A stretch of 64,000 nucleotides of DNA, taken from contig NZ_CP031153.1 of the NCBI RefSeq assembly GCF_003352465.1, positions 546,465 through 610,464 on the forward strand, read 5' to 3'. A program made the translations under genes and the position numbers. Shown here piece after piece: positions 7,306-43,005 of the stretch. The first letter of the stretch is position 1; each line of letters starts with the position of its first letter. This stretch comes from Kordia sp. SMS9. Lineage in GTDB: Bacteria > Bacteroidota > Bacteroidia > Flavobacteriales > Flavobacteriaceae. Below the pieces are notes generated by a model. The model was not told the DNA's origin, searched no databases, and saw nothing but the letters and a program-made list of their open reading frames with translations.

Positions 7306-7355
7306 TAGGGTACACACCTTTTTAAATGTCTAGTTAATAAGAAACTAAGCAAAAG

Positions 7356-8258: not shown

Positions 8259-8281
8259 CATAACATGTAGATATTATTATA

Positions 8282-23019: not shown

Positions 23020-23034
23020 AAGCTAAAAGATACA

Positions 23035-23109
23035 GCAGTAGTTCAAAAGAGTTGGAAGAACACTACCTTGCAAAGGTAGAGGATGCGGGTTCGAGTCCCA
23101 TTTACTGCT
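23035..23109 (+). tRNA. tRNA-Cys(GCA)-like
   Basis: Acceptor GCAGTAG/TTACTGC, anticodon arm CTACC-TTGCAAA-GGTAG (anticodon GCA), T-loop GGGTTCGAGTCCC. The T-stem has one mismatch and the D-arm is atypical. Confidence 0.45.
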
Positions 23110-23149
23110 CTTTAAAAACAATAATAAGAAATTTTGATACGCAAAGATT

Positions 23150-23410
23150 GATGGTTTAATTGGAAGAACACCTAGCTCATCACTGGAAGTGCGAGTTCAA
23201 ACCTCGCTCAATCTTTGCTCAAAAAACGGCAGTGATAGTAGCTCAATTGGAAGAGCATCTGCTCAACCAGCAGAGGGTTTTGAGTTCAAATATCAAGTAT
23301 TGCTGCCTATTAAAAATCATTACGAGAGTTGGTAGTTTAACTGGAAGAACACCTGGCAACCACTCAGGAAGTGCGAGTTCAAACCTTGCGCAACGCTCGT
23401 ATCACAATGG
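23150..23410 (+). pseudogene. Three degenerate tRNA-like repeats (paralogous to flanking tRNAs)
   Basis: Units share D-arm-like GGTTTAAYTGGAAGAACA and a perfect T-arm GCGAGTTCAAACCTCGC. Anticodon arms and acceptor stems pair poorly and carry 4-nt extras between the T-stem and the acceptor strand. Confidence 0.4.
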
Positions 23411-23412
23411 CA

Positions 23413-23485
23413 ACGGTAGTAGCTCAGTTGGAAGAGCGCATGCCTGTCACGCATGAGGTCGCGGGTTCGAATCTCGTTTACTGTT
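23413..23485 (+). tRNA. tRNA-Asp(GUC)
   Basis: D-arm GCTCAGTTGGAAGAGC, anticodon arm CATGC-CTGTCAC-GCATG (GTC), T-loop GGGTTCGAATCTC. The acceptor pairs with two G-U wobbles. Confidence 0.6.
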
Positions 23486-23507
23486 GCCTATTTAAAAAAA
23501 GAAACAC

Positions 23508-26513: not shown

Positions 26514-26588
26514 TGATGCATAGCTTAGTTGGTTAGCCCAGAGGCGCTTTTAACGTCAAGGTCGTGAGTTCGAACCTCACTGCGTCAA
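26514..26588 (+). tRNA. tRNA-Lys(UUU)-like
   Basis: Acceptor TGATGCA/TGCGTCA, anticodon loop CTTTTAA, T-arm GTGAG-TTCGAAC-CTCAC. The anticodon stem has a mismatch. Confidence 0.5.
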
Positions 26589-26594
26589 CAAAAA

Positions 26595-26681
26595 GGAAGA
26601 GCAAGCCAATTGGCGGTGGCCACGGTCTTGAAAACCGTTCGGAGTTAATGACTCGTGTGGGTTCGACTCCCACTTCTTCCG
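26595..26681 (+). tRNA. tRNA-Ser(UGA), type II
   Basis: Acceptor GGAAGAG/TTCTTCC, anticodon arm ACGGT-CTTGAAA-ACCGT, long variable arm, T-arm GTGGG-TTCGACT-CCCAC. Confidence 0.6.
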
Positions 26682-26691
26682 CAACTAATTT

Positions 26692-26778
26692 GGAGTGTAG
26701 GTAAATATTGGTTCGTTACGCTTGACTGCTAATCAAGTCCGTTTAACCGCGGTGAAGGTTCAATTCCTTTGCGCTCCG
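26692..26778 (+). tRNA. tRNA-Ser(GCU), type II
   Basis: Acceptor GGAGTGT/GCGCTCC (G-U wobbles), anticodon arm CTTGA-CTGCTAA-TCAAG, long variable arm, T-loop GGTTCAATTCC. Confidence 0.55.
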
Positions 26779-26787
26779 CAACATATT

Positions 26788-26914
26788 GGGGATATAGTTT
26801 ACCAAGCTAAAACAGTGGGTTTAACTCGATGATACCTATTTGATATTATGGTCTCATTGAATTCGCAAGCTTATTTGCTTCTCGCAGCACGGAGTGCAAG
26901 TCTCCGTATCTCCA
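26788..26914 (+). other. Oversized (127-nt) tRNA-like element
   Basis: Good acceptor GGGGATA/TATCTCC, D-arm GTTT-ACCAAGCTA-AAAC and T-like arm CGGAG-TGCAAGT-CTCCG, but ~50 extra nt in between with no clean anticodon arm. The T-loop has G at position 55. Confidence 0.35.
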
Positions 26915-26920
26915 CAACAT

Positions 26921-26992
26921 GATATTATAGCTCAATGGCAGAGCAAAGACCTGTTAAGTCTGAGGTTGAAGGTTCGAATCCTTCCGATATCG
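26921..26992 (+). tRNA. tRNA-Asn(GUU)
   Basis: D-arm GCTCAATGGCAGAGC, anticodon loop CTGTTAA, T-arm GAAGG-TTCGAAT-CCTTC. 3' end ...CGATATC-G-CA. Confidence 0.6.
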
Positions 26993-26996
26993 CAAC

Positions 26997-27069
26997 GACA
27001 AGGTGGCTGAATGGCAAAGGCAGCAGTCTGCAAAACTGTTTTGTATGAGTTCGAATCTCATCCTTGTCT
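26997..27069 (+). tRNA. tRNA-Cys(GCA)
   Basis: Acceptor GACAAGG/CCTTGTC perfect, anticodon arm GCAGT-CTGCAAA-ACTGT, T-arm ATGAG-TTCGAAT-CTCAT. Confidence 0.65.
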
Positions 27070-27117
27070 CAATGATTATGTAGTATCAAACTTGTTTGAA
27101 TAGTATATAATTTACTT

Positions 27118-27200
27118 GGAAGTGTTGAGAAATTGGTTGGCTTGCCAGACTGTAAATCTGGTCTCTTCGGAGCGTGTAGGTTCGAGTCCTACTACTTCCA
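27118..27200 (+). tRNA. tRNA-Tyr(GUA), type II
   Basis: Acceptor GGAAGTG/TACTTCC, anticodon arm CCAGA-CTGTAAA-TCTGG, long variable arm, T-arm GTAGG-TTCGAGT-CCTAC. Confidence 0.65.
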
Positions 27201-27206
27201 CAACAC

Positions 27207-27278
27207 ACGCTTGTGGTGTAACTGGTAGCATGTACGTCTCCAAAACGTACGGTTGAGGTTCAAATCCTTGCGGGCGTG
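27207..27278 (+). tRNA. tRNA-Trp(CCA)
   Basis: Anticodon arm TACGT-CTCCAAA-ACGTA, T-loop GGTTCAAATCC. The acceptor pairs with two G-U wobbles. Confidence 0.55.
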
Positions 27279-27282
27279 CAAA

Positions 27283-27440
27283 ATATAGCTATGGTGTAAT
27301 GGATAGCACATGAGATTTAGCTCACATGTTATTCATTATAGATTAAGCAGTTCGTGAATGTGAAAACATTTCTAACCTCATAGTCTAAGTTCGAAATGCT
27401 TTGCATTCATGAGTTCCTATTTATTAAGATAAGAACAAAA
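27283..27440 (+). pseudogene. Degenerate tRNA-Arg-like 5' half followed by ~100 nt of unassigned structured sequence
   Basis: Starts ATAGCTATGGTGTAATGGATAGCACA (same acceptor/D-arm as the tRNA-Arg at 27888), but the anticodon arm is broken and no intact T-arm/acceptor follows. Only an AAGTTCGAAATGC T-loop-like fragment is present. Confidence 0.35.
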
Positions 27441-27467
27441 CGAACTAATCTTAGTAGCTATACAAAT

Positions 27468-27539
27468 AGTATCGTGACTCAACGGTAGAGTGCTCGACTG
27501 TCTCTCGAGAAGTTGCGGGTTCGAATCCCGTCGGTACTG
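27468..27539 (+). tRNA. tRNA-Asp(GUC)-like (pyrimidine at position 37)
   Basis: D-arm ACTCAACGGTAGAGT, anticodon arm CTCGA-CTGTCTC-TCGAG, T-arm GCGGG-TTCGAAT-CCCGT, acceptor AGTATCG/CGGTACT. Confidence 0.5.
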
Positions 27540-27545
27540 CAAAAT

Positions 27546-27618
27546 CTGGGAATAGAACAATTGGCTGTTTACTCGCCTTGGACGCGAGAGGATGTAGGTT
27601 CGAATCCTGCTTCCCAGA
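27546..27618 (+). tRNA. tRNA-Pro(UGG)
   Basis: Acceptor CTGGGAA/TTCCCAG perfect, anticodon arm CTCGC-CTTGGAC-GCGAG, T-arm GTAGG-TTCGAAT-CCTGC. Confidence 0.6.
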
Positions 27619-27709
27619 CGACTAAATCAAAGCAAGCTTGCTTGAATTTGATTTGCAGTGAGGCATAGCAGGAACACTTTGCAAATCCTGCTTCTGAAAC
27701 AAATAAAAT

Positions 27710-27781
27710 GCTCCGTTCGTCTAATGGCTAGGACACCTGCCTTTCGAGCAGATAATAAGAGTTCGATTCTCTTACGGAGTA
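27710..27781 (+). tRNA. tRNA-Glu(UUC)
   Basis: Acceptor GCTCCGT/ACGGAGT, D-arm GTCTAATGGCTAGGAC, anticodon loop CTTTCGA, T-arm AAGAG-TTCGATT-CTCTT. Confidence 0.55.
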
Positions 27782-27787
27782 CAAAAT

Positions 27788-27860
27788 GCAGAGGTGGCGG
27801 AATGGCATACGCAGCTGTCTTAGAAGCAGTTTTTTGAGAGTTCGAATCTCTCTCTCTGTA
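27788..27860 (+). tRNA. Atypical tRNA: anticodon UAG (Leu) on a 73-nt type-I body
   Basis: Acceptor GCAGAGG/TCTCTGT (G-U wobbles), anticodon arm GCTGT-CTTAGAA-GCAGT, 5-nt variable loop, T-arm GAGAG-TTCGAAT-CTCTC. Bacterial tRNA-Leu normally has a long variable arm. Confidence 0.4.
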
Positions 27861-27887
27861 CAAACGCAATCTTGAAAGGAGTGCAAC

Positions 27888-27959
27888 AAGTTTATGGTGT
27901 AATGGATAGCACATTGGCCTACGAAGCCAAGAGTATAGGTTCGAATCCTATTAGACTTA
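27888..27959 (+). tRNA. tRNA-Arg(ACG)
   Basis: D-arm GTGTAATGGATAGCAC, anticodon arm TTGGC-CTACGAA-GCCAA, T-arm ATAGG-TTCGAAT-CCTAT. Confidence 0.6.
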
Positions 27960-27965
27960 CAATAT

Positions 27966-28037
27966 TGATCTGTGGTGTAACGGTTAGCACACGAGACTTT
28001 GACTCTCGGGGAAGAGGTTCGGTTCCTCTCAGATCTA
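27966..28037 (+). tRNA. tRNA-Gln(UUG)
   Basis: Anticodon arm CGAGA-CTTTGAC-TCTCG perfect, T-arm AGAGG-TTCGGTT-CCTCT, acceptor ...GATCTG/CAGATCT. Confidence 0.6.
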
Positions 28038-28041
28038 CTAT

Positions 28042-28137
28042 AGCGATATAGCTTAATTGGTAAAGCACTGGTCTCATAAGCCAGAAGTTGAAATGCCTGT
28101 ACTGAACTTGATTCAGTATCTAAGATTTCTATCGCCA
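28042..28137 (+). pseudogene. tRNA-Met/Ile2(CAU)-like gene whose T-loop is replaced by a ~29-nt palindromic (REP-like) insertion
   Basis: Acceptor AGCGATA, D-arm GCTTAATTGGTAAAGC, anticodon arm CTGGT-CTCATAA-GCCAG, then T-stem GAAAT/ATTTC enclosing GCCTGTACTGAACTTGATTCAGTATCTAAG in place of the 7-nt T-loop. It is a paralog of the intact tRNA-Ile that follows. Confidence 0.5.
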
Positions 28138-28145
28138 CTAAAAAT

Positions 28146-28218
28146 AGTGATATAGCTTAACTGGTAAAGCGTCAATCTGATAAGTTGGCAGATGAAAGTT
28201 CAAATCTTTCTATCACTA
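28146..28218 (+). tRNA. tRNA-Ile(GAU)
   Basis: Acceptor AGTGATA/TATCACT perfect, D-arm GCTTAACTGGTAAAGC, anticodon loop CTGATAA, T-arm GAAAG-TTCAAAT-CTTTC. Confidence 0.65.
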
Positions 28219-28225
28219 CAAAAAT

Positions 28226-28298
28226 GGTGACTTTAGTTTATTTGGTAAAACGCCTCACTGTGAATGAGAGGAACAGGGTTCGATCCCCGAAGTCACCC
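28226..28298 (+). tRNA. tRNA-His(GUG) with encoded G-1
   Basis: 5' GGTGACTT..., anticodon loop CTGTGAA, 3' ...AAGTCACC-C (G-1:C73 pair typical of bacterial tRNA-His). The T-stem is imperfect. Confidence 0.55.
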
Positions 28299-28303
28299 AA
28301 CCA

Positions 28304-28427
28304 GGAATAATGACAGAGTTGGTCAATGCGATGGATTGAAATGAGTTTACGAATTCATCGAAACCTATTTAATAAAATAGAATTCTATGAGATAAACCCA
28401 GAGATATAGGTTCGAATCCTATTTATT
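28304..28427 (+). other. Oversized (124-nt) tRNA-like element
   Basis: Acceptor GGAATAA/TTATTCC perfect and T-arm ATAGG-TTCGAAT-CCTAT, but ~50 extra nt internally, including a GAATTC-centred palindrome; no clean anticodon arm. Confidence 0.35.
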
Positions 28428-28533
28428 CCACAAAAGAAATGTAGTTTAAAATTAAAATAGCGAGCTAGTATCTCGAAGATGCAAGTAAAGTCTTGCCATT
28501 TCTCAAATTAAAAATTAATAAAAACAAACAGTC

Positions 28534-29006: not shown

Positions 29007-30014
29007 ATGTTTAAAAAATATAATAGTATCGAAAATACCTACCGTGAAAAGGCAACCGAACAAGTATATCTTCACGGGTATGGAAACGATGTATTTGTGG
29101 TACAAGAAAAAGTACATGGCGCTAATTTTTCTTTCATTACGGATGGAGATACAATTAGAGTTGCCAAACGTACATGTCTAATTGCAGAAGATGAAAACTT
29201 CAACAATCACAGATATGTTTTACACAAATATGAAAAAGCAATTACAGGGCTTTTCAAACGTGTAAAGAACGATTTTCCAGAAACAGAAATGATCACTGTT
29301 TTTGGTGAAATTTTCGGAGGAAGCTATCCGCATGCGGAGGTAGAAAAGATCGATGGAATGGTTCGCATTCAAAAAGGTGTTTTTTACAGTCCAGAAAATG
29401 ACTTTTACGCGTTTGATATTTGTATCAATCACACGCAATATCTTGATGTTACCATCGCGAACACATACTTTGAAGCAACAGGAATGTTGTATGCAAAAAC
29501 ACTTTTTGCAGGAACCTTTAGCGAATGTATGGCATATCCAAATGCATTTGAATCAAAAGTTCATGAATGGCTACATCTTCCAAAGATTGAAGACAATGTT
29601 TGTGAAGGAACCATCATCAAACCATTAACTAGCAAGCGTTTTGGAAATGGACAACGTGTTATTTTCAAAAACAAAAACGAAAAATGGTCTGAAAAGTCAC
29701 ATGAAAAACGATCAAGAGTTTCAAAGCCAAGTGCAATAGGAATGCTTTCACATACTGAAAAAGAATTGATGCACACGCTTTTGGGCTACGTGAACGAAAA
29801 TCGTTTGATGAATGTACAAAGTAAGCTTGGAGAGTTTTCACCAAAACAAACGGGAAAAACGATCGGATTGCTTGCCAAAGATGCACTAGAAGATTTTGTA
29901 AAAGATCATGAAAATGATTGGAATAACGTACAAAAAGAGCATCAAAAAGTATTAACAAAAATACTGAACAAAGAAGCAGTTACTGTCGTAAAAAAAGTAC
30001 TTCTTTTTAGGTAA
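29007..30014 (+). CDS. ATP-dependent RNA ligase, T4 Rnl2-like
   Basis: Nucleotidyltransferase motif I EKVHGANF (compare T4 Rnl2 EKIHGTN), motif IV VCEGTIIKP, motif V VIFKNKNEKW; 335 aa. Confidence 0.7.
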   Translation: MFKKYNSIENTYREKATEQVYLHGYGNDVFVVQEKVHGANFSFITDGDTIRVAKRTCLIAEDENFNNHRYVLHKYEKAITGLFKRVKNDFPETEMITVFGEIFGGSYPHAEVEKIDGMVRIQKGVFYSPENDFYAFDICINHTQYLDVTIANTYFEATGMLYAKTLFAGTFSECMAYPNAFESKVHEWLHLPKIEDNVCEGTIIKPLTSKRFGNGQRVIFKNKNEKWSEKSHEKRSRVSKPSAIGMLSHTEKELMHTLLGYVNENRLMNVQSKLGEFSPKQTGKTIGLLAKDALEDFVKDHENDWNNVQKEHQKVLTKILNKEAVTVVKKVLLFR

Positions 30015-30142: not shown

Positions 30143-30628
30143 ATGAAAATAACAATGAACAAGTGGCGAAACTTTTCAGGCAAAGTGTTCAATGAACCCA
30201 TAACTACACTTGTTGAGAATGCCATTGTAAAAGAACAAAAAGCTGGTCACAGATTGAAAATCTATGTGGGTTCGGATTCACAAGCCTATAAAACACATGT
30301 AAACTATGGTACTGTCATAGTGATTCTTAGAAAAGGAAAAGGTGGTTTTATGTTTATCAAAAACGAAAAAGGAACCACTAAAATAGGACTAAAAGAGCGT
30401 ATGCTAAGAGAGGTAGCACTATCCGTAGAAACAGCCTACCGCATTTGTGACCTATTGGAAAAATACAATATTGAATTGGAAGTTCATGCAGATATCAATA
30501 CAGACTCAAAATTTGAATCAAATGTGGCACTTAAAGAAGCGATGGGATATATCATAGGAATGGGCTTTGCATTCAAGGCAAAACCGTATGCTTTCGCAAG
30601 TTCTTCTTGTGCAGATAGTATTGTCTAA
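30143..30628 (+). CDS. Hypothetical protein (possibly RNase H-like YkuK/DUF458 fold)
   Basis: ORF track; YVGSDSQ motif is reminiscent of YkuK-family proteins; the assignment is uncertain. Confidence 0.4.
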   Translation: MKITMNKWRNFSGKVFNEPITTLVENAIVKEQKAGHRLKIYVGSDSQAYKTHVNYGTVIVILRKGKGGFMFIKNEKGTTKIGLKERMLREVALSVETAYRICDLLEKYNIELEVHADINTDSKFESNVALKEAMGYIIGMGFAFKAKPYAFASSSCADSIV

Positions 30629-30934: not shown

Positions 30935-31140
30935 CAAATATAATCCTCCATAGAGAAACATGGGTCATGGGTTCGAATCCCATTCTCGCAAGAGATAGTT
31001 CAGCGGTTAGAACAATGTTTTTGGATGTTGCCGGTTCGAGTCCGGTCAGTAGTTCCGAAAGGGCGGCTATTGTAACTCAATTGGTAGAGTACTACACTTT
31101 TAATGTAGATTGAAGTTCGATTTCTTCTAAAAAAATCACC
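30935..31140 (+). pseudogene. Three tRNA-like fragments (minihelix-like T-arm+acceptor; D-arm+T-arm without acceptor pairing; Lys(UUU)-like D/anticodon arms without acceptor)
   Basis: ATGGGTTCGAATCCCAT flanked by GAGAA/TTCTC; GTTCAGCGGTTAGAAC ... GCCGGTTCGAGTCCGGT; ACTCAATTGGTAGAGT + CTACA-CTTTTAA-TGTAG + AAGTTCGATTTCTTC. None folds into a complete cloverleaf. Confidence 0.4.
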
Positions 31141-32585: not shown

Positions 32586-32633
32586 GGTCTCACGACTGCG
32601 CTACCAACGTAGTTGTGAGACTACTTTTATTTA
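32586..32633 (+). terminator. Rho-independent terminator
   Basis: GTCTCAC...GTGAGAC hairpin followed by TACTTTTATTT. Confidence 0.55.
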
Positions 32634-32661: not shown

Positions 32662-33102
32662 ATGTCACGCCTATTACAAAAAATTACATACTTTTTTTCT
32701 TCTTTTTTTTCGGAAAAAGAGAATGAAAAACCCAAAGCAAATACACTAAAAATAAGTGATGAAATTGTGTTAAATGTTATGGAGCGATTGTCTCATTTTG
32801 AGCAAACAAAAGGGTTTTTAAAACCAATGACGTTACATAAATTGGCAAAAAAACTAAAAACAAATCCTAAATATTTATCAAGAATCATCAATGATCAATA
32901 TCAGAAGAACTATAGTTCCTACATCAACGATTTGCGTATTTCCTACTTACTAAAAGCATTGGAAAACGATGATTCGTTAAAAAAAGTAACCGTAAAATCA
33001 CTAGCAAAAAAGTTAGGATTTGGCAATACAGAATCCTTCGCAAAAGCATTTAAAAAGTATACAGGAGTCAATCCTTCTGTCTATTTAAATAGCTTGCCAT
33101 AA
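32662..33102 (+). CDS. AraC-family transcriptional regulator (short, HTH domain)
   Basis: C-terminal KSLAKKLGFGNTESFAKAFKKYTGVNPSVY is the AraC-type HTH signature. Confidence 0.75.
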   Translation: MSRLLQKITYFFSSFFSEKENEKPKANTLKISDEIVLNVMERLSHFEQTKGFLKPMTLHKLAKKLKTNPKYLSRIINDQYQKNYSSYINDLRISYLLKALENDDSLKKVTVKSLAKKLGFGNTESFAKAFKKYTGVNPSVYLNSLP

Positions 33103-33405: not shown

Positions 33406-34977
33406 GTGTATTGTAGAACTTTGATACACTCTAATCAACCTCAACACTGTATGGAATCTAGCCAAGAAAACACACCGCAAACTGATACAATCGAAATCAA
33501 AGTCTATGTCCCAATCAACGAAGTGACAGAGCGACAAAAGGGAATGATTGACAATGCTATTGCCAAACACCCTAGAGATCGAAAATACCTCTCAAACTCA
33601 GCGCATTCAGAAATTTTTGCTCCTAGTAAAAATGATGCCAACGACATTATTGAACATGCACAAGCTCAGAACTGGGAAGTAGATTTCAATGAAAAAGCTC
33701 GTAAAATTACGATCAAAATAAACTCAGAAGATATTGCTGACCAAAATAATCCTGTTACCCTTGATACGCTTCAATTTCTAAGTTCACAAGGAGATATTCA
33801 CATGGAAGTACTTGGTGAAGATCAACATGCAAAAGCCGAAGACATTACAGATCCTACACAAAAAACAGGCTTTGTAAAAAGTAATCAAGAACAACGCGTA
33901 GGTCGTGGACGCCAAATTCCAATTCAAGAACCTGCACACGGATACAGCGTCTTAGAAATTGCAGAAAGCTACAACTTCCCTGATGGTGATGGCGAAGGAC
34001 AAACCATAGGAATTATAGAATTAGGTGGAGAAGTACAGCAAAGCGACTTGGAAAAATTCTTTGCAGAATACAACACGCCAATTCCAGAAATTCAAATTGT
34101 GGGCAAACCAACTACAACTCCCGTAAATGATAACGTAGAAGTAACTGCAGACATTCAAGTAGCTGGAATCTTAGCGCCAAAAGCAAAGTTTGTCATCTAT
34201 TACGGAACTACCATCTTAGAAGCAATGAAAGCAGCATTGGCAGATACTGAAAACAAACTAACCGTCATTTCCATCAGTTGGGCAGGATCTGAATTGGGAT
34301 ATGCGCAACAAGAAATTATAGAACTCAACAATGTTTTTCATGAAGCTTCCTTAAAAGGAATTACTGTAGTGGGCGCTTCGGGCGATAATGGTGCTTTAAA
34401 CAACAAAGCATATGCAAATGTAAATGTGCCTGTAAACTCTCCGTATGTACTCGCTTGTGGCGGAACACAAACCTATATTACAGATGATAAAATTGCAGCA
34501 GAAGTTGTATGGAACGAATCTACGCAACAATCGCAAATAGGATCTGGTGGCGGATTCAGTCAGCGTATTTCCCAACAACAATATCAAATAAAATCTTCAC
34601 AAGAATACATTCAAAAATTTCCAAAATTTGCATCTTACCATCAAGCTGGCGGAAGAGGAATTCCAGACATTGCTGCAAATGCGGCAGATGCTTCGGGCTA
34701 TAGTATTGTTTTTCAAGGTCAATGGGTTAAAGTTGGCGGAACCAGTTTAGCAACACCACTTTGGGCTGCTCTAATCGGGCGTATGAATCAAAACTTAGGA
34801 TACCGATTAGGATTTATAAATCCATACTTATATGAGTTAATGGGTTCTTCGTCATTTCATCAAATTTTAGAAGGAAACAACAACCTCTATGTTGCCTCGG
34901 AAGGATGGAATCCATGTACAGGATTAGGCACGCCTGATGGAAAAGAACTAATGCATTCCATTGATAGTTTAGAATAA
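33406..34977 (+). CDS. S53 (sedolisin/kumamolisin-like) serine-carboxyl peptidase with pro-domain, no signal peptide
   Basis: YSVLEIAESYNFPDGDGEGQTIGIIELGG (start of the mature S53 domain), GASGDNGA (oxyanion Asp box), GGTSLATPLWAALIGRMNQ (catalytic Ser). The N-terminal ~180 aa form a pro-segment, and no secretion signal is present. Confidence 0.8.
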   Translation: MYCRTLIHSNQPQHCMESSQENTPQTDTIEIKVYVPINEVTERQKGMIDNAIAKHPRDRKYLSNSAHSEIFAPSKNDANDIIEHAQAQNWEVDFNEKARKITIKINSEDIADQNNPVTLDTLQFLSSQGDIHMEVLGEDQHAKAEDITDPTQKTGFVKSNQEQRVGRGRQIPIQEPAHGYSVLEIAESYNFPDGDGEGQTIGIIELGGEVQQSDLEKFFAEYNTPIPEIQIVGKPTTTPVNDNVEVTADIQVAGILAPKAKFVIYYGTTILEAMKAALADTENKLTVISISWAGSELGYAQQEIIELNNVFHEASLKGITVVGASGDNGALNNKAYANVNVPVNSPYVLACGGTQTYITDDKIAAEVVWNESTQQSQIGSGGGFSQRISQQQYQIKSSQEYIQKFPKFASYHQAGGRGIPDIAANAADASGYSIVFQGQWVKVGGTSLATPLWAALIGRMNQNLGYRLGFINPYLYELMGSSSFHQILEGNNNLYVASEGWNPCTGLGTPDGKELMHSIDSLE

Positions 34978-35015: not shown

Positions 35016-35450
35016 ATGACTAAAAAATTGGCATTAGATGAACTTCCTAAACGTCTCACTATAGATGGTAAAAAAATAGACGATATGCTAATGATCTATG
35101 GTTTTGTGGCTCCAGGAACAGCAGAAAACAACATCAAATTCTACCTAGATCCTTCTTTGAAAACATCAGTAGTTATTAACGATGAAGATATCATTCACCA
35201 TGCAAAAGTGAACAAGTCGCACAATCCTATTGGTGGAACAGTCATTTGGGTTAAAAATGCAGCTAAGTACATACAAGGAAACGCAACACCAGCACAGGCA
35301 GTAGCAAACATACAAGCACAACAACATGCTGAACAATTTTTCCAAGGAGACATTTATCAACAATATGCAAACACTGTTCAAGGAAATACCCAACCAAAAC
35401 CACAAAACCCTTATGCACCAGTTTGTGGATGCGGAAAATGCGAACAGTAA
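35016..35450 (+). CDS. Hypothetical 144-aa protein with Ala/Gln-rich segment and C-terminal CGCGKC
   Basis: ORF track. TPAQAVANIQAQQHAEQ resembles the AQAQ punctuation of the downstream precursor. The C-terminus reads PVCGCGKCEQ. Confidence 0.5.
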   Translation: MTKKLALDELPKRLTIDGKKIDDMLMIYGFVAPGTAENNIKFYLDPSLKTSVVINDEDIIHHAKVNKSHNPIGGTVIWVKNAAKYIQGNATPAQAVANIQAQQHAEQFFQGDIYQQYANTVQGNTQPKPQNPYAPVCGCGKCEQ

Positions 35451-35542: not shown

Positions 35543-36850
35543 ATGTTTACATTTTTTCACGGATGTGGAATTCCGCCTATCACAGTAACATGTGGTCAAG
35601 GTGGTGCACATGCACAGAATGTTGGACCTACGGGGACATTCGGTTGTACACAACCAGGTCATTGTTTAGGCCCAACAGGAACGCAAGGTTGTACAGTAGC
35701 TACTGCGCCACCACATTGCTTAATTGGACCTACGGGAACGCAAGGTTGTACGCAACCAGGTCATTGTGTTGGACCTACTGGAACGTATGGATGTACAGTA
35801 GTTGGACCAACAGGAACACAAGGCTGTACACAACCACAAACTATTTTACCTCCAACTATTGGATGTATTACAGTTACAACAACAGTAGTAACACATGCGC
35901 AAGCACAAGCTAATGTACCTAACACTATTGGATGTACAGCTATTACACCTTGTCCTACTTTACCTTGTCCACAAGGTGGAAATGCACAAGCGCAAACTAT
36001 TTTACCGCCAACATTACCTCCAGCATGCGTACCTCATACAGTAGGATGTACGGCTATTACGCCATGTGTAACAATTGGTGGTCATGCACAAGCACAAACT
36101 GTTCCACGTCCATCTGCCATTTGTGCAACAGCTATTGCATGCACAATTACGACAGCTCCACAGGCTGCACAAGCACAAACTATTGGTATTACTGGATGGC
36201 ATGGATGCACTGTGGTTGGACCAACAGGAACACAAGGATGTACAGTTGTAGGACCGACAGGTTACCAAGGTTGTCTAACACCAACAGGAACACCTCCAGC
36301 TACAGTTTGCCCAGGTGGTAATGCACAAGCACAAACAATCGGTGTTACGGGATGGCATGGTTGCACAGTTGTAGGACCAACTGGTTATCTAGGATGTTTA
36401 ACTCCAACAGGAACGCCTCCAGCTACAGTTTGCCCAGGTGGTAATGCACAAGCACAAAACGTAGGACCAACAGGATGGGAAGGTTGTCACCAACAAAACA
36501 CGCTTGCTACTGTTTGCACACAAATTGATTGTGGCGGACCAACACACCTTTTAGGTTGTACAGGTTACGAAGGTTGCCTAACTCCAACAGGAACGCCTCC
36601 AGCTACAGTTTGCCCAGGCGGCGATGCACAGGCACAGACTCTTGGTCATACAGCGTATGAAGGTTGTGGACAGCATGGAACAGAAGCTACGGTATGTACA
36701 CAAATTGGATGCGGACCAACACATCTTTTAGGATGTACTGGATATGAAGGATGTCATAATGGAGGAAATGCTCAGGCACAAATTCATAGTATTCCTGTAG
36801 CAGACTGTATTCCTACACGTAGTTGTACAGGAGCTTGGCCAGTATGTTAA
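35543..36850 (+). CDS. 435-aa Cys/Thr/Gly/Pro-rich multi-cassette polypeptide (candidate multi-core RiPP/lanthipeptide precursor)
   Basis: No signal peptide (MFTFFHGCGIPP...). About nine segments are separated by the conserved punctuation (P)GG[NHD]AQAQ[TN][IVL]. The segments are dominated by Cys, Thr, Gly, Pro (for example TIGVTGWHGCTVVGPTGYLGCLTPTGTPPATVCP). Two cassettes are nearly identical. The other-frame ORFs 35563-36321 are artefacts of this repetitive DNA. Confidence 0.55.
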   Translation: MFTFFHGCGIPPITVTCGQGGAHAQNVGPTGTFGCTQPGHCLGPTGTQGCTVATAPPHCLIGPTGTQGCTQPGHCVGPTGTYGCTVVGPTGTQGCTQPQTILPPTIGCITVTTTVVTHAQAQANVPNTIGCTAITPCPTLPCPQGGNAQAQTILPPTLPPACVPHTVGCTAITPCVTIGGHAQAQTVPRPSAICATAIACTITTAPQAAQAQTIGITGWHGCTVVGPTGTQGCTVVGPTGYQGCLTPTGTPPATVCPGGNAQAQTIGVTGWHGCTVVGPTGYLGCLTPTGTPPATVCPGGNAQAQNVGPTGWEGCHQQNTLATVCTQIDCGGPTHLLGCTGYEGCLTPTGTPPATVCPGGDAQAQTLGHTAYEGCGQHGTEATVCTQIGCGPTHLLGCTGYEGCHNGGNAQAQIHSIPVADCIPTRSCTGAWPVC

Positions 36851-36908
36851 TGATAGCTTATCTACAATAGATACAGCTATTTTTTAGTAGTATAAAGCTG
36901 CCTGTACA

Positions 36909-38027
36909 TTGCAGGCAGCTTTCAAAACTCAAAAAACTATTTTTATGCGCTTAACGAAAAAAAACATCACTCATTACCTACTAGACAAAGGATTTTTAGA
37001 ACCTACATCCTTTATGTCAGGAGAGTATATGCTTACGCAAACTCAAAGTAGAAACTCCATCTTTAAAATTCAACAACAACAAGACAAAGGATTATTTGTT
37101 AAGCAACTCATCGCGCAAGATGCTACAAATAGCTACTTGATGCAGAAAGATGCCACAAGTCACTATTTAATTCATCAATCAGATTTATATAAAGAAACCG
37201 CAACACATATTCCTGAATATTACGGGTACGATCCGTATCATAACATTTTAGTCACGGAATATTTTGCAAACACCAAAAACATACACGAAGTTGTTTATCG
37301 TGATAAAAAATTATCAGAATCACACGCAGTAAAAATGGCGCATATATTAGCTTCGTTTCATTTTGATATTACAAAAGAGATTAAAAATAATAGTTCGCTT
37401 CAATTCTTCAGTAAACAAATTCCGTGGATTTTAAACACAAATCAACTACTAAACAACAACTCCCAAAGTATTAATAATGCTGTCATTGCAGAAATTCACA
37501 AACATCAAGATTTGGTGAAACGCATGGACAAAGTGGCTTCGCAGTGGGAAACTTCAAGCTTGATTCATGGAGATATTAAGTGGATGAATTTCATCGTAAT
37601 GCCAAATAATGAAGAGGTAAAACTCATTGATTGGGAAATTGCCGATTTAGGCGATCCACTATGGGATGTAGCCGGAGTTTTTCAATCGTATTTCTGTGCT
37701 TGGGTTTTAAGTTTTAACAATCAAAACATACAGGATCATCAACAAATGCCTGGTACGGAGTTTTTATCGGTAGAAACCATCACACCAGTTGTAAAATTGC
37801 TTTGGGAAACCTATGCATCTGCTCAAAAATTTACAGCTACCGAAGCTAGAGAAAAGTTACTCAAAACACTTTCCTACATGGCAGCTCGCATGATACAAAC
37901 TGCTTTTGAAAACAATATGGCGCAACAACAACAAATGTATCCGAATTCGGCACGTATCCTACAATTCTGCAATCATATTTTAGCAGATGTTGAAGGAATT
38001 GCAAAACAATGGAATTTAATAGACTAA
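36909..38027 (+). CDS. Aminoglycoside-phosphotransferase-fold (APH/CotS-like) kinase
   Basis: Catalytic loop HGDIKWMNF and IDWEIADLGDPLWDVAG (D-[FW]-E ... GDP..D of the APH fold); N-lobe Lys in GLFVKQL. 4-nt gap to the next ORF. Confidence 0.65.
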   Translation: MQAAFKTQKTIFMRLTKKNITHYLLDKGFLEPTSFMSGEYMLTQTQSRNSIFKIQQQQDKGLFVKQLIAQDATNSYLMQKDATSHYLIHQSDLYKETATHIPEYYGYDPYHNILVTEYFANTKNIHEVVYRDKKLSESHAVKMAHILASFHFDITKEIKNNSSLQFFSKQIPWILNTNQLLNNNSQSINNAVIAEIHKHQDLVKRMDKVASQWETSSLIHGDIKWMNFIVMPNNEEVKLIDWEIADLGDPLWDVAGVFQSYFCAWVLSFNNQNIQDHQQMPGTEFLSVETITPVVKLLWETYASAQKFTATEAREKLLKTLSYMAARMIQTAFENNMAQQQQMYPNSARILQFCNHILADVEGIAKQWNLID

Positions 38028-38031
38028 AACC

Positions 38032-39087
38032 ATGAAAAACAACACACATACAAAACAAGTACGTCAAATTATAGATGCTATTGAAATTACTTCGTTAACC
38101 ACGTATAAAGTACATGGTGAAGAAGAATATGTGCAAAATCAAATGCCGTATCAAACCTTTGCAGAAGATTTTAAATCGTTTGGAAGCAATGCCACTGTAG
38201 ATTCACAGCAACAGCGCACCAACTTAACCAACGCACTTACCAATACGATTTACGCTAAATTCTATTGTGGAATTCAAAATGGCAATCATACGTCAAAAAT
38301 TCCACCAAAAGTGGAACGAGATGAATTTATGAATCAACTTTCGCAGGCAAATACTTCCGTTAATGGACTCGACTATCATTGGAATATTTACAATATTGAC
38401 GCCAAAACAGGAAGCGCATACGTTCAAAAAAACGGCGAATTGCGTTGGTTACAACCGAACGGATTTCAATTTGTAAATCCGCAGCAAAAACAAGCAATCG
38501 TGAATACGAAAGTAAATCTAACACGTCAAAAAGAAAACAGAAACCTTCAACCTGTATTTTATCATGTGTTTAGCAATGAAATGTTTCCGCAGGAAGTCGA
38601 AATTGGAAGATTCTACTGGAACGTTTCGCCAGAAGGCGCTGCCAAACTCGTCAACTTGCTCACAACAACGTTGAATGATTATAAAATTCCATTTCAATTC
38701 AAATGCTTAAATCACCCTGAGTTGTATGTCCGATCCGACTCCGCCGTTTTATATGTAAGTAAAAAACACGTGCAATTAGTTTCCATCATTTTACAAAGTG
38801 TCATTCCGAATTTAGAACCGTATCTTGTAGACGAAATTCCGATGTTTACCAAACAGCTTCACAAAGGTGTTGGGTACGCAGAAGATCCTGGGAAAGGGCA
38901 AAGTTTTGGAATGAGTCGCTCATCTACCATTGCAGAAGCGTTGGTAGAAGCATTCTTGCAAGAACAAAATGCCACACAAAGGTTCAACACAGTGGTCAAT
39001 TCTTTATCGCGAAAAGGAATGTCACTCGATCGTTTGCACCTAAACAAACACACCGCATTAACGCCAACATTCCCAACATATGAATAG
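38032..39087 (+). CDS. Hypothetical 351-aa protein between kinase and LanC-like genes (candidate phospho-Ser/Thr lyase partner)
   Basis: ORF track; translationally coupled on both sides; no motif I can assign from memory. Confidence 0.5.
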   Translation: MKNNTHTKQVRQIIDAIEITSLTTYKVHGEEEYVQNQMPYQTFAEDFKSFGSNATVDSQQQRTNLTNALTNTIYAKFYCGIQNGNHTSKIPPKVERDEFMNQLSQANTSVNGLDYHWNIYNIDAKTGSAYVQKNGELRWLQPNGFQFVNPQQKQAIVNTKVNLTRQKENRNLQPVFYHVFSNEMFPQEVEIGRFYWNVSPEGAAKLVNLLTTTLNDYKIPFQFKCLNHPELYVRSDSAVLYVSKKHVQLVSIILQSVIPNLEPYLVDEIPMFTKQLHKGVGYAEDPGKGQSFGMSRSSTIAEALVEAFLQEQNATQRFNTVVNSLSRKGMSLDRLHLNKHTALTPTFPTYE

Positions 39088-40342
39088 TATAGAAACCACC
39101 CAAAAAACAGACGTACAAATGTATGTAAAAACGGCACACAATATTGGCAAGTACTTAGCCAAAGAAGCATTATGGTATAAAGATATGTGCAACTGGACTG
39201 GGCATGAAGTGGCGCCCGTTGGCGATACATTCCAAACGGTTGTCAAAGCGTGTAGCATTGATTTGTACAGCGGACTCACAGGAATTGCTTTATTTTTAGC
39301 AGAATTATATGATAAAACGCAAGATACAATCATTTTGCACACCTTAAATGGTGCCTTAAAAACCATCTATTCAAATTTAGAAGGTGACAAAGTAAACAAC
39401 TTCGGATACTACTCTGGAAAAATTGGATTGGGATATACGCTGTGGCGCATTGGGAAAAAATCAGCAAATGCGGAATTGGTAGACAAAGCACTTTCCATAG
39501 TAAAATCTGTCAAAGACAAAGACATTGCCGATTATGAAGTAGATATCATTTCTGGCGCTGCGGGATCCATCTCAGTGTTATTAAAACTATACTATGCCGA
39601 ACAAGACAATGACTTTTTGGAAATTGCTGAAAAATGTGGTCAATTTCTATTGAAAAAAGCGATCCGACAAGGTGAAATCTGTTCATGGATGACGGTTGAC
39701 AAATCCAATGCACTTACAGGCTATTCGCATGGCGCTTCGGGTATTGCTTCCGCATTGATGGAACTCTATGCAACCACAAAGAAAGAGGAATACTGGCATA
39801 CCGCTATGGGCGGATACAACTATGAGAAACAATGGTTCAATCAGCAAACTCAAAACTGGCCCGATTTACGTGAATATGATGGTTCCAAACCGTTAAACTA
39901 CGGCGTTATGTGGTGTCACGGCGCACCCGGAATTGCCATTGCGCAACTAAAAGCCTACGAAATGACGAAGCATGAATACTTTTTACAGGAAGCGAAAGTT
40001 GCTTTGGAAACTACCAAAAGAACAGTCATTCAAGAAATCAATATAAACTCGAAAGCAAACTTTTCACTATGTCACGGATTGGCTGGAAATGCTGATATAT
40101 TACTCTACGGAAGTCAAATACTAAATCATCCAGAATATGCGCAAATTGCCAAAAATGCAGGCGATTTCGGAATTGCACACTACGATGCAACAGGTGTGAT
40201 ATTTCCAAGTGGCGTGAACGATCCTAGCGGACTCACCATCGGACAAGAAGAAAATCCTGGACTCATGTTAGGACTTTCAGGAACAGGCATGTTTTACTTG
40301 CGTTTGGCAGATATCATGGTTCCTTCGGCGTTGGTGCCTTGA
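39080..40342 (+). CDS. Stand-alone LanC-like lanthionine cyclase domain protein
   Basis: All three LanC zinc-ligand motifs are present: GYSHGASGIASAL, VMWCHGAPGIAIAQL, SLCHGLAGNADILLYG. 420 aa; it overlaps the upstream stop by 8 nt. Confidence 0.8.
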   Translation: MNSIETTQKTDVQMYVKTAHNIGKYLAKEALWYKDMCNWTGHEVAPVGDTFQTVVKACSIDLYSGLTGIALFLAELYDKTQDTIILHTLNGALKTIYSNLEGDKVNNFGYYSGKIGLGYTLWRIGKKSANAELVDKALSIVKSVKDKDIADYEVDIISGAAGSISVLLKLYYAEQDNDFLEIAEKCGQFLLKKAIRQGEICSWMTVDKSNALTGYSHGASGIASALMELYATTKKEEYWHTAMGGYNYEKQWFNQQTQNWPDLREYDGSKPLNYGVMWCHGAPGIAIAQLKAYEMTKHEYFLQEAKVALETTKRTVIQEININSKANFSLCHGLAGNADILLYGSQILNHPEYAQIAKNAGDFGIAHYDATGVIFPSGVNDPSGLTIGQEENPGLMLGLSGTGMFYLRLADIMVPSALVP

Positions 40343-40378: not shown

Positions 40379-40406
40379 AAGGGTTTTTTTCCCTTTTATT
40401 TTTAAG
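40379..40406 (+). terminator. Rho-independent terminator closing the putative RiPP operon
   Basis: AAGGG-TTTTTTT-CCCTT hairpin followed by TTATTTTT. Confidence 0.6.
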
Positions 40407-40678: not shown

Positions 40679-41014
40679 ATGGACAAATCATACTACAACC
40701 CAAGAGACTTAAAAAAATTCGGATCCATTACTGAATGGAGTGAAGAATTGGGAAACAAATTCTTTGAATACTACGGAAAAGTGTTTGAAGAAGGCGCGCT
40801 CACACCTCGCGAAAAATCACTCATCGCTTTAGCAGTAGCACATACCGAGCAATGTCCGTATTGCATTGATGCCTATTCACAAGACGGTTTGCAACGCGGA
40901 ATCACAAAAGAAGAAATGATGGAAGCCATTCACGTTGGTGCCGCCATCAAAAGTGGTGCAACATTAGTGCATGGTGTGCAAATGATGAACAAAGTAAATA
41001 AATTGGAAATGTGA
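40679..41014 (+). CDS. AhpD/carboxymuconolactone-decarboxylase-fold protein (arsenosugar-biosynthesis-associated peroxidase-like)
   Basis: 111 aa; CPYC within the helix-rich AhpD core (LIALAVAHTEQCPYCIDAY); immediately upstream of ArsS. Confidence 0.7.
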   Translation: MDKSYYNPRDLKKFGSITEWSEELGNKFFEYYGKVFEEGALTPREKSLIALAVAHTEQCPYCIDAYSQDGLQRGITKEEMMEAIHVGAAIKSGATLVHGVQMMNKVNKLEM

Positions 41015-41127: not shown

Positions 41128-42183
41128 ATGGCGACAAAGTCCCTACAAAAAAGAGAAAGTGAACTTGCAAGTACAAAACGACAACTGGAAATTCTGTCTA
41201 ACGGAATCTTTCAAAGTGGCGAATTGCCAACGTTTGCCAACAAAATAAAAGAAACAAATCAATTTCCCCTAAAGCCCAAAAAAATTGAAATCTTACAAAT
41301 CAATGTTGGGTATATGTGCAATCAAGTCTGTTCGCATTGTCATGTAGATGCAGGTCCCGACCGAAAGGAAATCATGACGCGTGAAACCATGCAACAATGT
41401 TTGGATGTCATTGAAAAAACGGGCGCACATACGCTCGATTTAACAGGTGGCGCACCCGAAATGAATCCACACTTTCGTTGGTTTGTAGAAGAAGCGTCTA
41501 AAATTGGTGTGAAAGATTTTATTGTACGATCAAATCTTACGATCATTCGTGCGAACAAAAAATACTACGATTTGCCAGAATTCTTCAAAAAACACAATGT
41601 ACATGTCGTTTCTTCCATGCCGCACTGGACACGTGGAAAAACGGACAAACAACGTGGCGACGGTGTTTTTGACAAATCTATCAAAGCCTTACAAGAACTC
41701 AACGCAGTTGGCTACGGAATGCCCGATAGCGATTTGCGATTAGACTTGGTATACAATCCGTCAGGAGCGTTTTTACCGGGAGATCAAACAGCGATGGAAA
41801 AAGATTTCAAAAAAGCCTTATTCGACGATTTCGGCATTCAATTTCACAACCTATTTGCCATTACTAACTTGCCGATCAGTCGTTTTTTGGATTACCTTAT
41901 TGCTTCTGAAAACTATGAAGATTATATGTACTCTTTGGTGGAAGCGTTCAATCCGGGCGCGGTGACAAATGTCATGTGCACCAATACCATTTCCGTAAGT
42001 TGGGACGGTTGGTTGTACGATTGCGATTTCAACCAAATGCTCGATTTAAAAGTAGCAAGCAAGGTAAAACACATTTCAGAATACAACGAAGAACTATTAC
42101 AAAACAGAAACATCATCATCTCTCAACACTGTTATGGTTGCACCGCTGGCGCAGGAAGCAGTTGTCAAGGAAGTGTTGCTTAA
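41128..42183 (+). CDS. arsS: Radical SAM protein ArsS (rSAM/Cys-rich-domain, arsenosugar biosynthesis)
   Basis: CNQVCSHC (CxxxCxxC) radical-SAM cluster motif and a C-terminal Cys-rich tail CYGCTAGAGSSCQGSVA. There is no in-frame TGA, so it is the Cys form, not the Sec form. Confidence 0.75.
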   Translation: MATKSLQKRESELASTKRQLEILSNGIFQSGELPTFANKIKETNQFPLKPKKIEILQINVGYMCNQVCSHCHVDAGPDRKEIMTRETMQQCLDVIEKTGAHTLDLTGGAPEMNPHFRWFVEEASKIGVKDFIVRSNLTIIRANKKYYDLPEFFKKHNVHVVSSMPHWTRGKTDKQRGDGVFDKSIKALQELNAVGYGMPDSDLRLDLVYNPSGAFLPGDQTAMEKDFKKALFDDFGIQFHNLFAITNLPISRFLDYLIASENYEDYMYSLVEAFNPGAVTNVMCTNTISVSWDGWLYDCDFNQMLDLKVASKVKHISEYNEELLQNRNIIISQHCYGCTAGAGSSCQGSVA

Positions 42184-42483: not shown

Positions 42484-43005
42484 ATGAAAAACATTCTTTA
42501 CATACTAACTTTTCTAGGTGTCGCTTTCGCGAATAGCCAAACCGCACTCGACAGTCTCTTGCAAAAAGAAAACAAAGCATCTGTTCCCTACATCACGGTT
42601 TCAGAATTGCTTCAAAAGGAAAACATCGTTCTCTTAGACAGTCGCGAAAAAGTAGAATATGAAACCAGCCATATTGAAAATGCGGTGTGTGTTGGCTATG
42701 ATAAATTCAAACTGAAAAAAGTAAAAAAACTATTGCCTAAAGATAAAAACACGCCAATTGTTGTTTATTGTTCTTTGGGAATTCGCTCAGAAGATGTTGG
42801 CGAAAAACTACAAAAAGCAGGCTACAAAAACGTGTACAATCTTTATGGGGGTATTTTTGAATGGAAAAATCAAGATCAGACTGTGGTAGACAACAAAGGA
42901 GAAACGACCGAAAACATACACACGTTCAATGAAGATTGGAGCATTTGGCTAAAAAAAGGCGTGAAAATTTTCGACAAGAAAAAATCCAACAAAGACAAAT
43001 CATAA
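42484..43005 (+). CDS. Secreted rhodanese-domain sulfurtransferase
   Basis: Signal peptide MKNILYILTFLGVAFANSQ; active-site loop YCSLGIRS. Confidence 0.75.
   Translation: MKNILYILTFLGVAFANSQTALDSLLQKENKASVPYITVSELLQKENIVLLDSREKVEYETSHIENAVCVGYDKFKLKKVKKLLPKDKNTPIVVYCSLGIRSEDVGEKLQKAGYKNVYNLYGGIFEWKNQDQTVVDNKGETTENIHTFNEDWSIWLKKGVKIFDKKKSNKDKS

Follow-up and report, generated by a model that had tools for sequence, protein, structure and literature searches.

We uncovered a predicted lanthipeptide cluster in a 64,000-nucleotide stretch of the genome of Kordia sp. SMS9 (Bacteroidota; Flavobacteriaceae; contig NZ_CP031153.1, forward-strand positions 546,465 to 610,464), which we call the window and to which all coordinates refer unless a related locus is named. 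The cluster is centered on a + strand gene (35543-36850) whose open reading frame (ORF) translates to a LanA-like protein of 435 amino acids (aa) that is rich in Cys, Thr, Gly and Pro, contains 40 Cys and lacks a leader. Judging from comparative sequence analysis, this protein is probably a giant, leaderless, multi-cassette precursor of the class Vb lanthipeptide type, which would carry up to 40 rings and be cut at its recurrent AQAQ motifs by an S53 peptidase encoded in the same cluster. The parts of this proposal carry their own weights: it is very likely that the protein is a substrate of the kinase (LanK), lyase (LanY) and cyclase (LanC) encoded next to it, and the balance tips slightly towards the S53 peptidase being the enzyme that excises the cassettes at AQAQ.

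A giant protein divided into ten cassettes

The 435-aa protein is composed of 79 Thr (18.2%), 73 Gly (16.8%), 49 Pro (11.3%) and 40 Cys (9.2%), among other residues, with 10 charged residues in all and no Lys. An AHAQ at residue 22 and AQAQ at residues 119, 148, 182, 209, 261, 302, 362 and 410 constitute nine A(Q/H)AQ sites, which divide it into ten cassettes of 21, 93, 25, 30, 23, 48, 37, 56, 44 and 22 aa. An earlier note on this DNA had listed the ORF and nine punctuation sites from the sequence alone; the ORF is real and translation recovers every one of the sites, all on the + strand: GG-AHAQ-NV (35606-35617), TH-AQAQ-AN (35897-35908), GGN-AQAQ-TIL (35984-35995), GGH-AQAQ-TV (36086-36097), PQA-AQAQ-TIG (36167-36178), GGN-AQAQ-TIG (36323-36334), GGN-AQAQ-NVG (36446-36457), GGD-AQAQ-TLG (36626-36637) and GGN-AQAQ-IHS (36770-36781), the last of which precedes a near-invariant C-terminal cassette, IHSIPVADCIPTRSCTGAWPVC. 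The cassettes described there are likewise real, with a measured range of 21-93 aa in place of the 20-80 aa given. The near-duplicates noted among them are recovered by Tandem Repeats Finder at 36218-36486 (period 123, 2.2 copies, 79% matches) and 36399-36750 (period 180, 2.0 copies, 77% matches), together with a further repeat at 35768-35830 (period 33).

The eight AQAQ of the protein compare with a mean of 0.02 and a maximum of 1 in 5000 shuffles of its sequence. Moreover, the codons vary synonymously among the sites, with GCA, GCG or GCT used for Ala and CAA or CAG for Gln; hence, the motif is maintained at the protein level and is not merely the outcome of recent DNA copying. The GG that precedes the motif is variable, with TH-AQAQ and QA-AQAQ occurring among the sites. 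The gene as a whole is a constrained coding gene under purifying selection: in an ungapped comparison of its last 70 codons, for which two orthologues in register (L011 and L014) were usable while six of the eight were out of register, the dN/dS is 0.05-0.12 at a dS of ~0.75. The overlapping ORFs at 35563-35913, 35932-36321 and 36014-36268 (- strand) are compositional shadows of this real frame. The protein matches no family in Pfam (even at E = 10) or NCBIfam and has no signal peptide. Its AlphaFold model, which draws on an alignment of 10 sequences, displays neither secondary structure nor a fold, with a mean predicted local distance difference test score (pLDDT) of 36. Even the N-terminus (MFTFFHGCGIPP..TC) is a module of the core type, and homologues repeat it internally.

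Spacing of Thr, Ser and Cys

The Cys residues of this protein are positioned in a regular fashion with respect to upstream Thr and Ser residues. A Thr is found at -5 of 25 of the 40 Cys, compared to a mean of 7.2 in shuffled sequences, none of 5000 of which reaches 25. The same position is occupied by Thr for 53-68% of the Cys in 16 homologues, regardless of the local motif, the motifs with this spacing being as different as TGTQGC, TQPGHC, TAITPC, THLLGC, TGYEGC and TLATVC. Under a greedy assignment, all 40 Cys can be paired with a distinct Ser or Thr located at -3 to -6 within their own cassette, at spacings of 5 (25 times), 3 (seven), 6 (five) and 4 (three); shuffled sequences allow 20.6 such pairs on average and 31 at most. 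Consecutive, non-overlapping methyllanthionine rings would require just this pattern of Ser/Thr-Cys pairing.

Conserved linkage to a kinase, a lyase and a cyclase

The precursor gene is followed on the + strand by three genes, which code for the following proteins: LanK, a Ser/Thr kinase of the APH fold with the motifs HGDIKWMN and IDWE (36945-38027; PF01636, E 1.2e-8, above the cutoff); LanY, a HopA1-like phosphoSer/phosphoThr lyase (38032-39087; PF17914, E 3.1e-39, 135 bits vs a 22.7-bit cutoff); and LanC, a zinc-dependent lanthionine cyclase with the ligand motifs SHG, WCHG and CHG (39080-40342; PF05147, E 1e-67), whose zinc ligands (His, Cys, Cys-His) are invariant in 61 of 61 homologues. 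The mechanical ORF of LanK begins at a TTG (36909) that falls within a hairpin described below, and its probable start is the ATG at 36945 (MRLTKK), which matches that of the orthologues. With the LxmK equivalog model NF038156 this kinase scores 65 bits (E 5e-18), which falls under the 315-bit cutoff; hence, it is a relative rather than an orthologue of LxmK.

Many of the homologues of the 435-aa protein come from Kordia and other Flavobacteriaceae; they share the N-terminus MFTFFHGCGIPPVTLTC and the near-invariant C-terminus IPVADCIPTRSCTGAWPVC. The family is rare, with 24 cluster representatives at E <= 0.001 among 1.84 billion proteins, one of which, the autotransporter-like repeat protein P0066, is a false match due to composition. 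Each of the six distinct distant homologues that were looked up adjoins genes for the kinase, the lyase and the cyclase; these include a metagenomic homologue with ~36% identity, where the three enzyme genes are divergently transcribed, one from Longimicrobium (Gemmatimonadota), and one whose neighbors are a kinase-lyase fusion, a separate cyclase and a further Cys/Thr-rich gene. Scanning a single genome for each species, with four lyase sequences as the seed (a seven-sequence alignment was too divergent), recovered 57 loci, all from Bacteroidota, spanning Kordia, Flavobacterium, Hymenobacter, Spirosoma, Chitinophaga, Larkinella, Aureispira and Saprospiraceae, among others. The window, the six loci reached via homologues and 55 of the 57 scan loci make up 62 distinct tabulated loci, mostly from Bacteroidota and all with a kinase call. 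At every one of them the genes are adjacent in the order kinase-lyase-cyclase as far as the contig extends, and a Cys-rich ORF (at least 10 Cys, 113-620 aa) lies close by at 61 of the 62, usually immediately upstream of the kinase; the sole locus without one has merely 324 bp upstream of the kinase gene.

The suspicion voiced in the earlier note that the protein is the precursor of a peptide made on the ribosome and modified after translation (RiPP), flanked by S53 peptidase and LanC-like genes, is borne out on both counts: domain matches place the two neighbors in the cluster, and the gene order in ~60 loci, together with the Cys-Thr/Ser pairing, makes the protein almost certainly a substrate of lanthionine machinery. 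Its further claim, that such a precursor would be unprecedented in Bacteroidetes, has to be qualified: the family is widespread in Bacteroidota and reaches Longimicrobium and Methylogaea, and the enzyme set is that of the described class Vb. The Methylogaea representative is a TxxxxC-type homologue (P0027) from the gammaproteobacterium Methylogaea oryzae. A further AQAQ-punctuated homologue (P0014) was seen in the transcriptome of the ciliate Favella (MMETSP); it probably comes from an associated bacterium, and its transcriptomic origin hints that such genes are transcribed.

AQAQ punctuation and the S53 peptidase

The proposed cassette-releasing protease is an S53 (sedolisin/kumamolisin-like) serine peptidase with a prodomain (33451-34977, + strand), encoded upstream of the precursor. 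It matches kumamolisin-As (E 8e-74), with the Glu/Asp/Asp/Ser catalytic positions aligned (EVTADIQVAG, SGDNG, GGTSLATP), and has a weak match to the pro-kumamolisin activation domain (PF09286, E 3.9e-4). The mechanical ORF starts at a GTG (33406), and the probable start, which matches that of the orthologues, is the ATG at 33451 (MESSQEN...). Direct reading of the sequences, with no predictor run, reveals no signal peptide, most of 21 orthologues having a hydrophilic N-terminus (MEATQENSSQKD...). We also considered an HAQAQN in the prodomain (residues 84-89 of the mechanical ORF 33406-34977) as a self-cleavage site; however, this is a chance resemblance, because it is not conserved in 20 orthologues, which have HAEANH, HAKANN and others instead.

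Among the tabulated loci, the precursor contains at least two AQAQ at 19 of the 20 loci with an S53 gene and at none of the 27 loci lacking one for which at least 6 kb of upstream sequence was available. The position of the S53 gene varies, being upstream at some loci and downstream of LanC at others. A motif approximating [G/Q][G/N/Q]-AQAQ-[T/N/F/A] is kept in the precursors of the Kordia-like, Saprospiraceae and Hymenobacter loci; thus, the homologues with retained punctuation that the earlier note had called for do exist, with AQAQ conserved in three deeply diverged lineages while the cassettes differ, the reverse of the pattern that the note had named as refuting its idea. In a LanC tree the S53/AQAQ loci form essentially one clade, inside which a Chitinophaga branch has lost S53 and AQAQ together, its spacers reading AAEQ, PQAG or AAAQ. 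This co-occurrence suggests that AQAQ behaves in the manner expected of a cleavage site. Of the excision at GGxAQAQ envisaged in the earlier note, the AQAQ half is probable, as it tracks S53; the TH and QA variants indicate that the double Gly is not a required element.

The modular organization that had been read from the single protein is seen in its evolution too: between orthologues, entire AQAQ-bounded cassettes are gained and lost. Where distant homologues lack S53, the cassette motifs persist but AQAQ degenerates; hence, the cores and not the spacers are the most conserved part. This is the opposite of the situation in cyanobactins, whose logic had been invoked for the protein. The clearest multi-core architecture of the family, as read from sequence, is that of the Flavobacterium-type precursors, which have 5-10 near-identical copies of IPTLPISQCIPTVSCTGISPIC with Q/A/N/G spacers between them; this is the same cassette as the one that ends the Kordia 435-aa protein. 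The Flavobacterium/Lacinutrix-type precursors (L035 7162-8745, L043 6875-8608, L056 7006-8475 and L063 7510-8598) have an N-terminal domain of another type (~190 aa, 6-8 Cys), which is followed by a GDIY motif and then by 22-aa cassettes with three Cys. Other subfamilies have an S8 subtilase beside the precursor in place of S53, or a histidine kinase and a LytTR regulator, the latter pair being found upstream at some of the Flavobacterium/Lacinutrix-type loci. The S8 configuration is seen in Arcicella (L051, precursor 5148-6755) and Flavisolibacter (L061, precursor 7305-8828), where the subtilase gene lies directly upstream of a precursor with three units of a recognition-like motif and a core, the core being preceded by GD(L/M)Y..YM and followed by (F/Y)(N/D)PY.

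Alternative interpretations

Several observations weigh against a ringed precursor that is diced by S53. The dehydration, ring formation and cleavage are all inferred from sequence. With 18% of its residues being Thr, the protein should show some Thr-Cys pairing by chance, and the shuffles ignore the non-independence of the duplicated cassettes. The alignment behind the AlphaFold model is shallow. The S53-AQAQ association draws on few independent events, because it is confined to essentially one clade of the LanC tree: it amounts to about one gain with one or two losses and not to 19 independent events. Kumamolisins are typically secreted and acid-active, so that a cytoplasmic processing role would be unusual, and their specificity as known says nothing on AQAQ. 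Several related loci lack both the leader-domain gene and the peptidase, and we found no conserved transporter or exporter in the cluster or in the related loci. Finally, the characterized LanK enzymes recognize a leader (PMC9486802), while the 435-aa protein is leaderless.

The strongest of the competing explanations, which we still regard as unlikely, is that the protein is modified by LanK, LanY and LanC but never diced: it would persist as an intact protein with ~40 rings, in which the AQAQ stretches are flexible Gly/Ala/Gln spacers and S53 serves in trimming, turnover or immunity. Such a product would accord with the 27 related loci that have no S53 nearby, several of which have no peptidase at all, with the lack of an encoded exporter, with the heterogeneity of the Kordia cassettes, which are not identical repeated cores, and with the spacers of the distant homologues, which are merely Gly/Ala/Gln-rich. 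However, a mere spacer would have no need for an exact AQAQ that is kept despite synonymous codon variation and tracks S53. Further, the precursors of other subfamilies are partnered by an S8 peptidase, and the 5-10 near-identical cassettes in the Flavobacterium relatives suggest released copies.

We consider it improbable that AQAQ is instead an internal recognition element, i.e., a mini-leader that recruits the kinase, lyase or cyclase to each cassette. It would compensate for the leader that the 435-aa protein lacks, and there is a parallel in the recognition-like GDLYQGYM that precedes each of the three cores in Arcicella (L051) and Flavisolibacter (L061). Nevertheless, AQAQ is present solely where S53 is encoded, and the AQAQ-free TxxxxC-type homologues (L003, L005/L030, L006, L008) are served by orthologous enzymes. 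The least credible alternative is that the protein is no RiPP substrate at all but a Cys-rich structural, disulfide-bonded or metal-binding protein of a metallothionein- or keratin-like kind that happens to lie beside the enzymes: its Cys/Gly/Pro richness and G-x-y triplets (GPT-GTQ-GCT) are reminiscent of collagen- or metallothionein-like proteins, one relative has a weak match to Keratin_B2_2 (E 0.53), and among solved structures the S53 enzyme is closest to kumamolisins, of which kumamolisin-As is collagenolytic, but the absence of a signal peptide (a secreted structural protein being the outcome that the earlier note had named as refuting its idea) and of a predicted fold, an adjacency that has survived rearrangements and a kinase-lyase fusion in ~60 loci from different phyla, and a Thr at -5 of Cys that has no rationale in metal or disulfide binding make this highly implausible.

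A proposed maturation pathway

Returning to the precursor cut by S53, we propose the following pathway. Translation in the cytoplasm would yield the 435-aa protein as a leaderless, unfolded chain. LanK, the APH-fold kinase, would phosphorylate Thr and rarely Ser, and the HopA1-like lyase LanY would eliminate the phosphate to leave dehydrobutyrine. The zinc cyclase LanC would then add each Cys thiol to the dehydro residue located 3-6 positions upstream, mostly 5, which would result in up to 40 small, consecutive, non-overlapping methyllanthionine rings arranged like beads on a string. The kumamolisin-like S53 peptidase, likewise cytoplasmic, would cut in or beside the (G)G-x-AQAQ spacers and thereby release up to ten different ring-rich peptides of ~21-93 residues. 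The 144-aa product of the gene preceding the precursor could either supply recognition in trans or be a second small substrate. Taken as a whole, this polyprotein route, with a leaderless substrate, ~40 rings, recognition in trans by the 144-aa protein and dicing by a cytoplasmic sedolisin to ~10 ringed peptides, is a tentative scheme that we hold to be possible rather than probable.

The 144-aa protein and its leader-like domain

The gene between those for S53 and the precursor (35016-35450, + strand) codes for a 144-aa protein, LD, with no family match. Its layout runs from a small domain rich in beta structure (residues ~20-85) through a Q-rich linker and the motif FFQGDIYQQYANT to a C-terminal CGCGKC. 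The latter, as CGCG(K/Q)C, is invariant in 23 Kordia orthologues; it is probably not a lanthionine core, because there is no conserved Ser/Thr nearby, and may have a role in metal binding or another function. In many lineages a homologue of the beta-rich domain is fused, as a leader-like N-terminal domain, to a Cys-rich region: BLASTP links the LD domain to P0015 (E 1e-10), and a hidden Markov model of the domain matches precursors in Spirosoma, Saprospiraceae, Larkinella, Flavisolibacter, Arcicella and one Hymenobacter genome. P0065, a single chain of 916 aa, has the leader-like domain together with a GDIYSNY motif, and it also contains TxxxxC modules and the C-terminal cassette. The possibility that the 144-aa and 435-aa genes are one gene split by error is ruled out by their different frames, and the stop codon and ~90-bp spacer between them are conserved in at least 15 Kordia genomes. 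Thus, the leader-like domain is a separate gene in Kordia and is absent altogether from several relatives. On this comparative evidence the 144-aa protein may be a trans-acting leader or a second small substrate.

Boundaries and surroundings of the cluster

The cluster comprises seven + strand genes framed by strong terminator-like hairpins: one with a 15-bp stem and a T run at its upstream edge (32586-32631, + strand) and one with a T run at its downstream edge (40379-40405, + strand). The first gene codes for a 146-aa AraC-type helix-turn-helix regulator (32662-33102, +; PF12833, E 1e-15), whose gene keeps this position in the Kordia loci and also in L007, from Saprospiraceae. Every ORF from one terminator to the other is explained, and these include no flavoprotein decarboxylase (LanD), no second APH (LanX), no LanB dehydratase domain (PF04738/PF14028) and no C39 peptidase. 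Between the precursor and kinase genes the RNA is predicted to form two hairpins (36852-36922, +; minimum free energy -31.3 kcal/mol, z = -6.1), the first at 36852-36881, followed by a U6 run, and the second with a 13-bp stem at 36894-36922. The pair suggests an attenuator- or stabilizer-like element. A strong hairpin follows the precursor gene at seven diverse related loci as well (eight with the window), the sequences being unrelated, and a hairpin after the structural gene is the usual layout for lanthipeptide lanA genes.

Directly past the downstream terminator lie an arsenosugar pair, namely an AhpD-like peroxidase (TIGR04169) and the radical SAM enzyme ArsS (TIGR04167), and a rhodanese (40679-41014, 41128-42183 and 42484-43005, + strand), which are syntenic in Kordia and stand outside the lanthipeptide system. 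The radical SAM gene (41128-42183) was considered as a RiPP maturase and ruled out, as it is the ArsS of the arsenosugar cluster and lies beyond the terminator. Upstream of the lanthipeptide cluster there is a dense array of tRNA genes (23032-23488, 26514-28504 and 31066-31135, + strand; 21 genes by ARAGORN, 24 by Rfam), several of which are low-scoring or have unusual A34 anticodons (Val-AAC, Gly-ACC, Arg-ACG), and two of which are tRNA-Cys. Seven further Kordia genomes have similar arrays, of varying content, upstream of this cluster. Genes for a T4 Rnl2-like RNA ligase and an RNaseH-like protein (29007-30014 and 30143-30628, + strand) sit between the array and the cluster and may constitute an RNA-repair module tied to the tRNA array; at that place the related locus L001 also has a Ro60/TROVE+vWA gene (2510-4108). 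The left of the window holds a 1364-aa ORF (2200-6294, - strand).

Significance of the precursor family

To our knowledge, the lanthipeptide precursors on record fall far short of ~100 residues and have a single leader, a single core and only a few rings, and sedolisins are a protease family not known from RiPP maturation. Although the enzymology is of a known kind (class Vb), we found no description in the searchable literature of this giant precursor family, its architecture, its missing leader, its split-off leader domain or its S53 partner, nor of any S53 enzyme as a lanthipeptide protease; antiSMASH-based surveys of Kordia list merely a "lanthipeptide" cluster. If our proposal is right, the precursor would be several-fold larger and leaderless, would have ten cassettes with up to 40 rings, and would be processed by a sedolisin. 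LanK/LanY/LanC would gain a wider substrate range, the multi-core strategy would come to include lanthipeptides, and cytoplasmic RiPP maturation would join the roles of S53 peptidases. The family would also offer natural material on how LanK, LanY and LanC work without a leader and on how one gene can encode many ring scaffolds. It occurs in dozens of Bacteroidota species, including cultured carriers such as Kordia algicida OT-1 (locus L022, with the same cluster), K. jejudonensis, Hymenobacter, Spirosoma and Flavobacterium, and is therefore directly testable.

Comparison with known systems

The cyanobactin precursor PatE has several cores per gene with repeated short punctuation and a dedicated serine peptidase alongside, and its cores are hypervariable. 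The Kordia cluster parallels it in having several cassettes in one chain, a repeated short motif between them and a nearby serine peptidase gene. It differs in that its predicted modifications are thioether rings rather than heterocycles or head-to-tail cyclization, its peptidase is of the S53 type in contrast to the PatA/PatG-type S8 enzymes, the 435-aa protein has no N-terminal leader, and the cassette motifs of the family are conserved at least as well as the punctuation. With the pinensin-type class I systems (LanB and LanC) it shares the phylum Bacteroidota and a stand-alone LanC. The cluster LanC resembles LanM-type cyclase domains (TIGR03897, E 1e-84), a resemblance that has been noted for Bacteroidetes LanCs (PMC7268733). 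Unlike the class I systems, dehydration here is assigned to a kinase and a lyase and not to LanB, and the size and architecture of the precursor are different. In class IV LanL the lyase, kinase and cyclase are parts of one polypeptide, whereas three separate genes are present here, and the LanL model matches the LanC part alone (132 bits vs a 650-bit cutoff). The S53 enzyme shares with kumamolisin and kumamolisin-As the catalytic domain, the aligned Glu/Asp/Asp/Ser and the pro-kumamolisin activation domain; it differs from kumamolisin in having no signal peptide and a gene embedded in a RiPP cluster.

The closest parallel is class Vb, whose known substrate is a short peptide made up of a single core behind an N-terminal leader. 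All three of its stand-alone enzyme families (PF01636, PF17914 and PF05147) are present in the Kordia cluster, in which only (methyl)lanthionine rings are expected because it lacks LanD and LanX. Class Vb is defined by stand-alone LanK (PF01636), LanY (PF17914) and LanC (PMC12291118, PMC11186320), and mSmoA, a Streptomyces lanthipeptide, is its only characterized product (Pei et al. 2022, cited in PMC11186320 and PMC12291118). Dehydration by LanK and LanY has been reconstituted for cacaoidin, and lanthipeptide precursors in general are short, with an N-terminal leader and a core (PMC9486802). Against this background, the Kordia system stands apart in several respects: the kinase is far under the LxmK equivalog cutoff (65 vs 315 bits), the host belongs to Bacteroidota rather than Actinobacteria, the cluster encodes an S53 peptidase and a separate leader-domain protein, and the predicted substrate is a leaderless protein of 435 aa with ten cassettes and 40 Cys.

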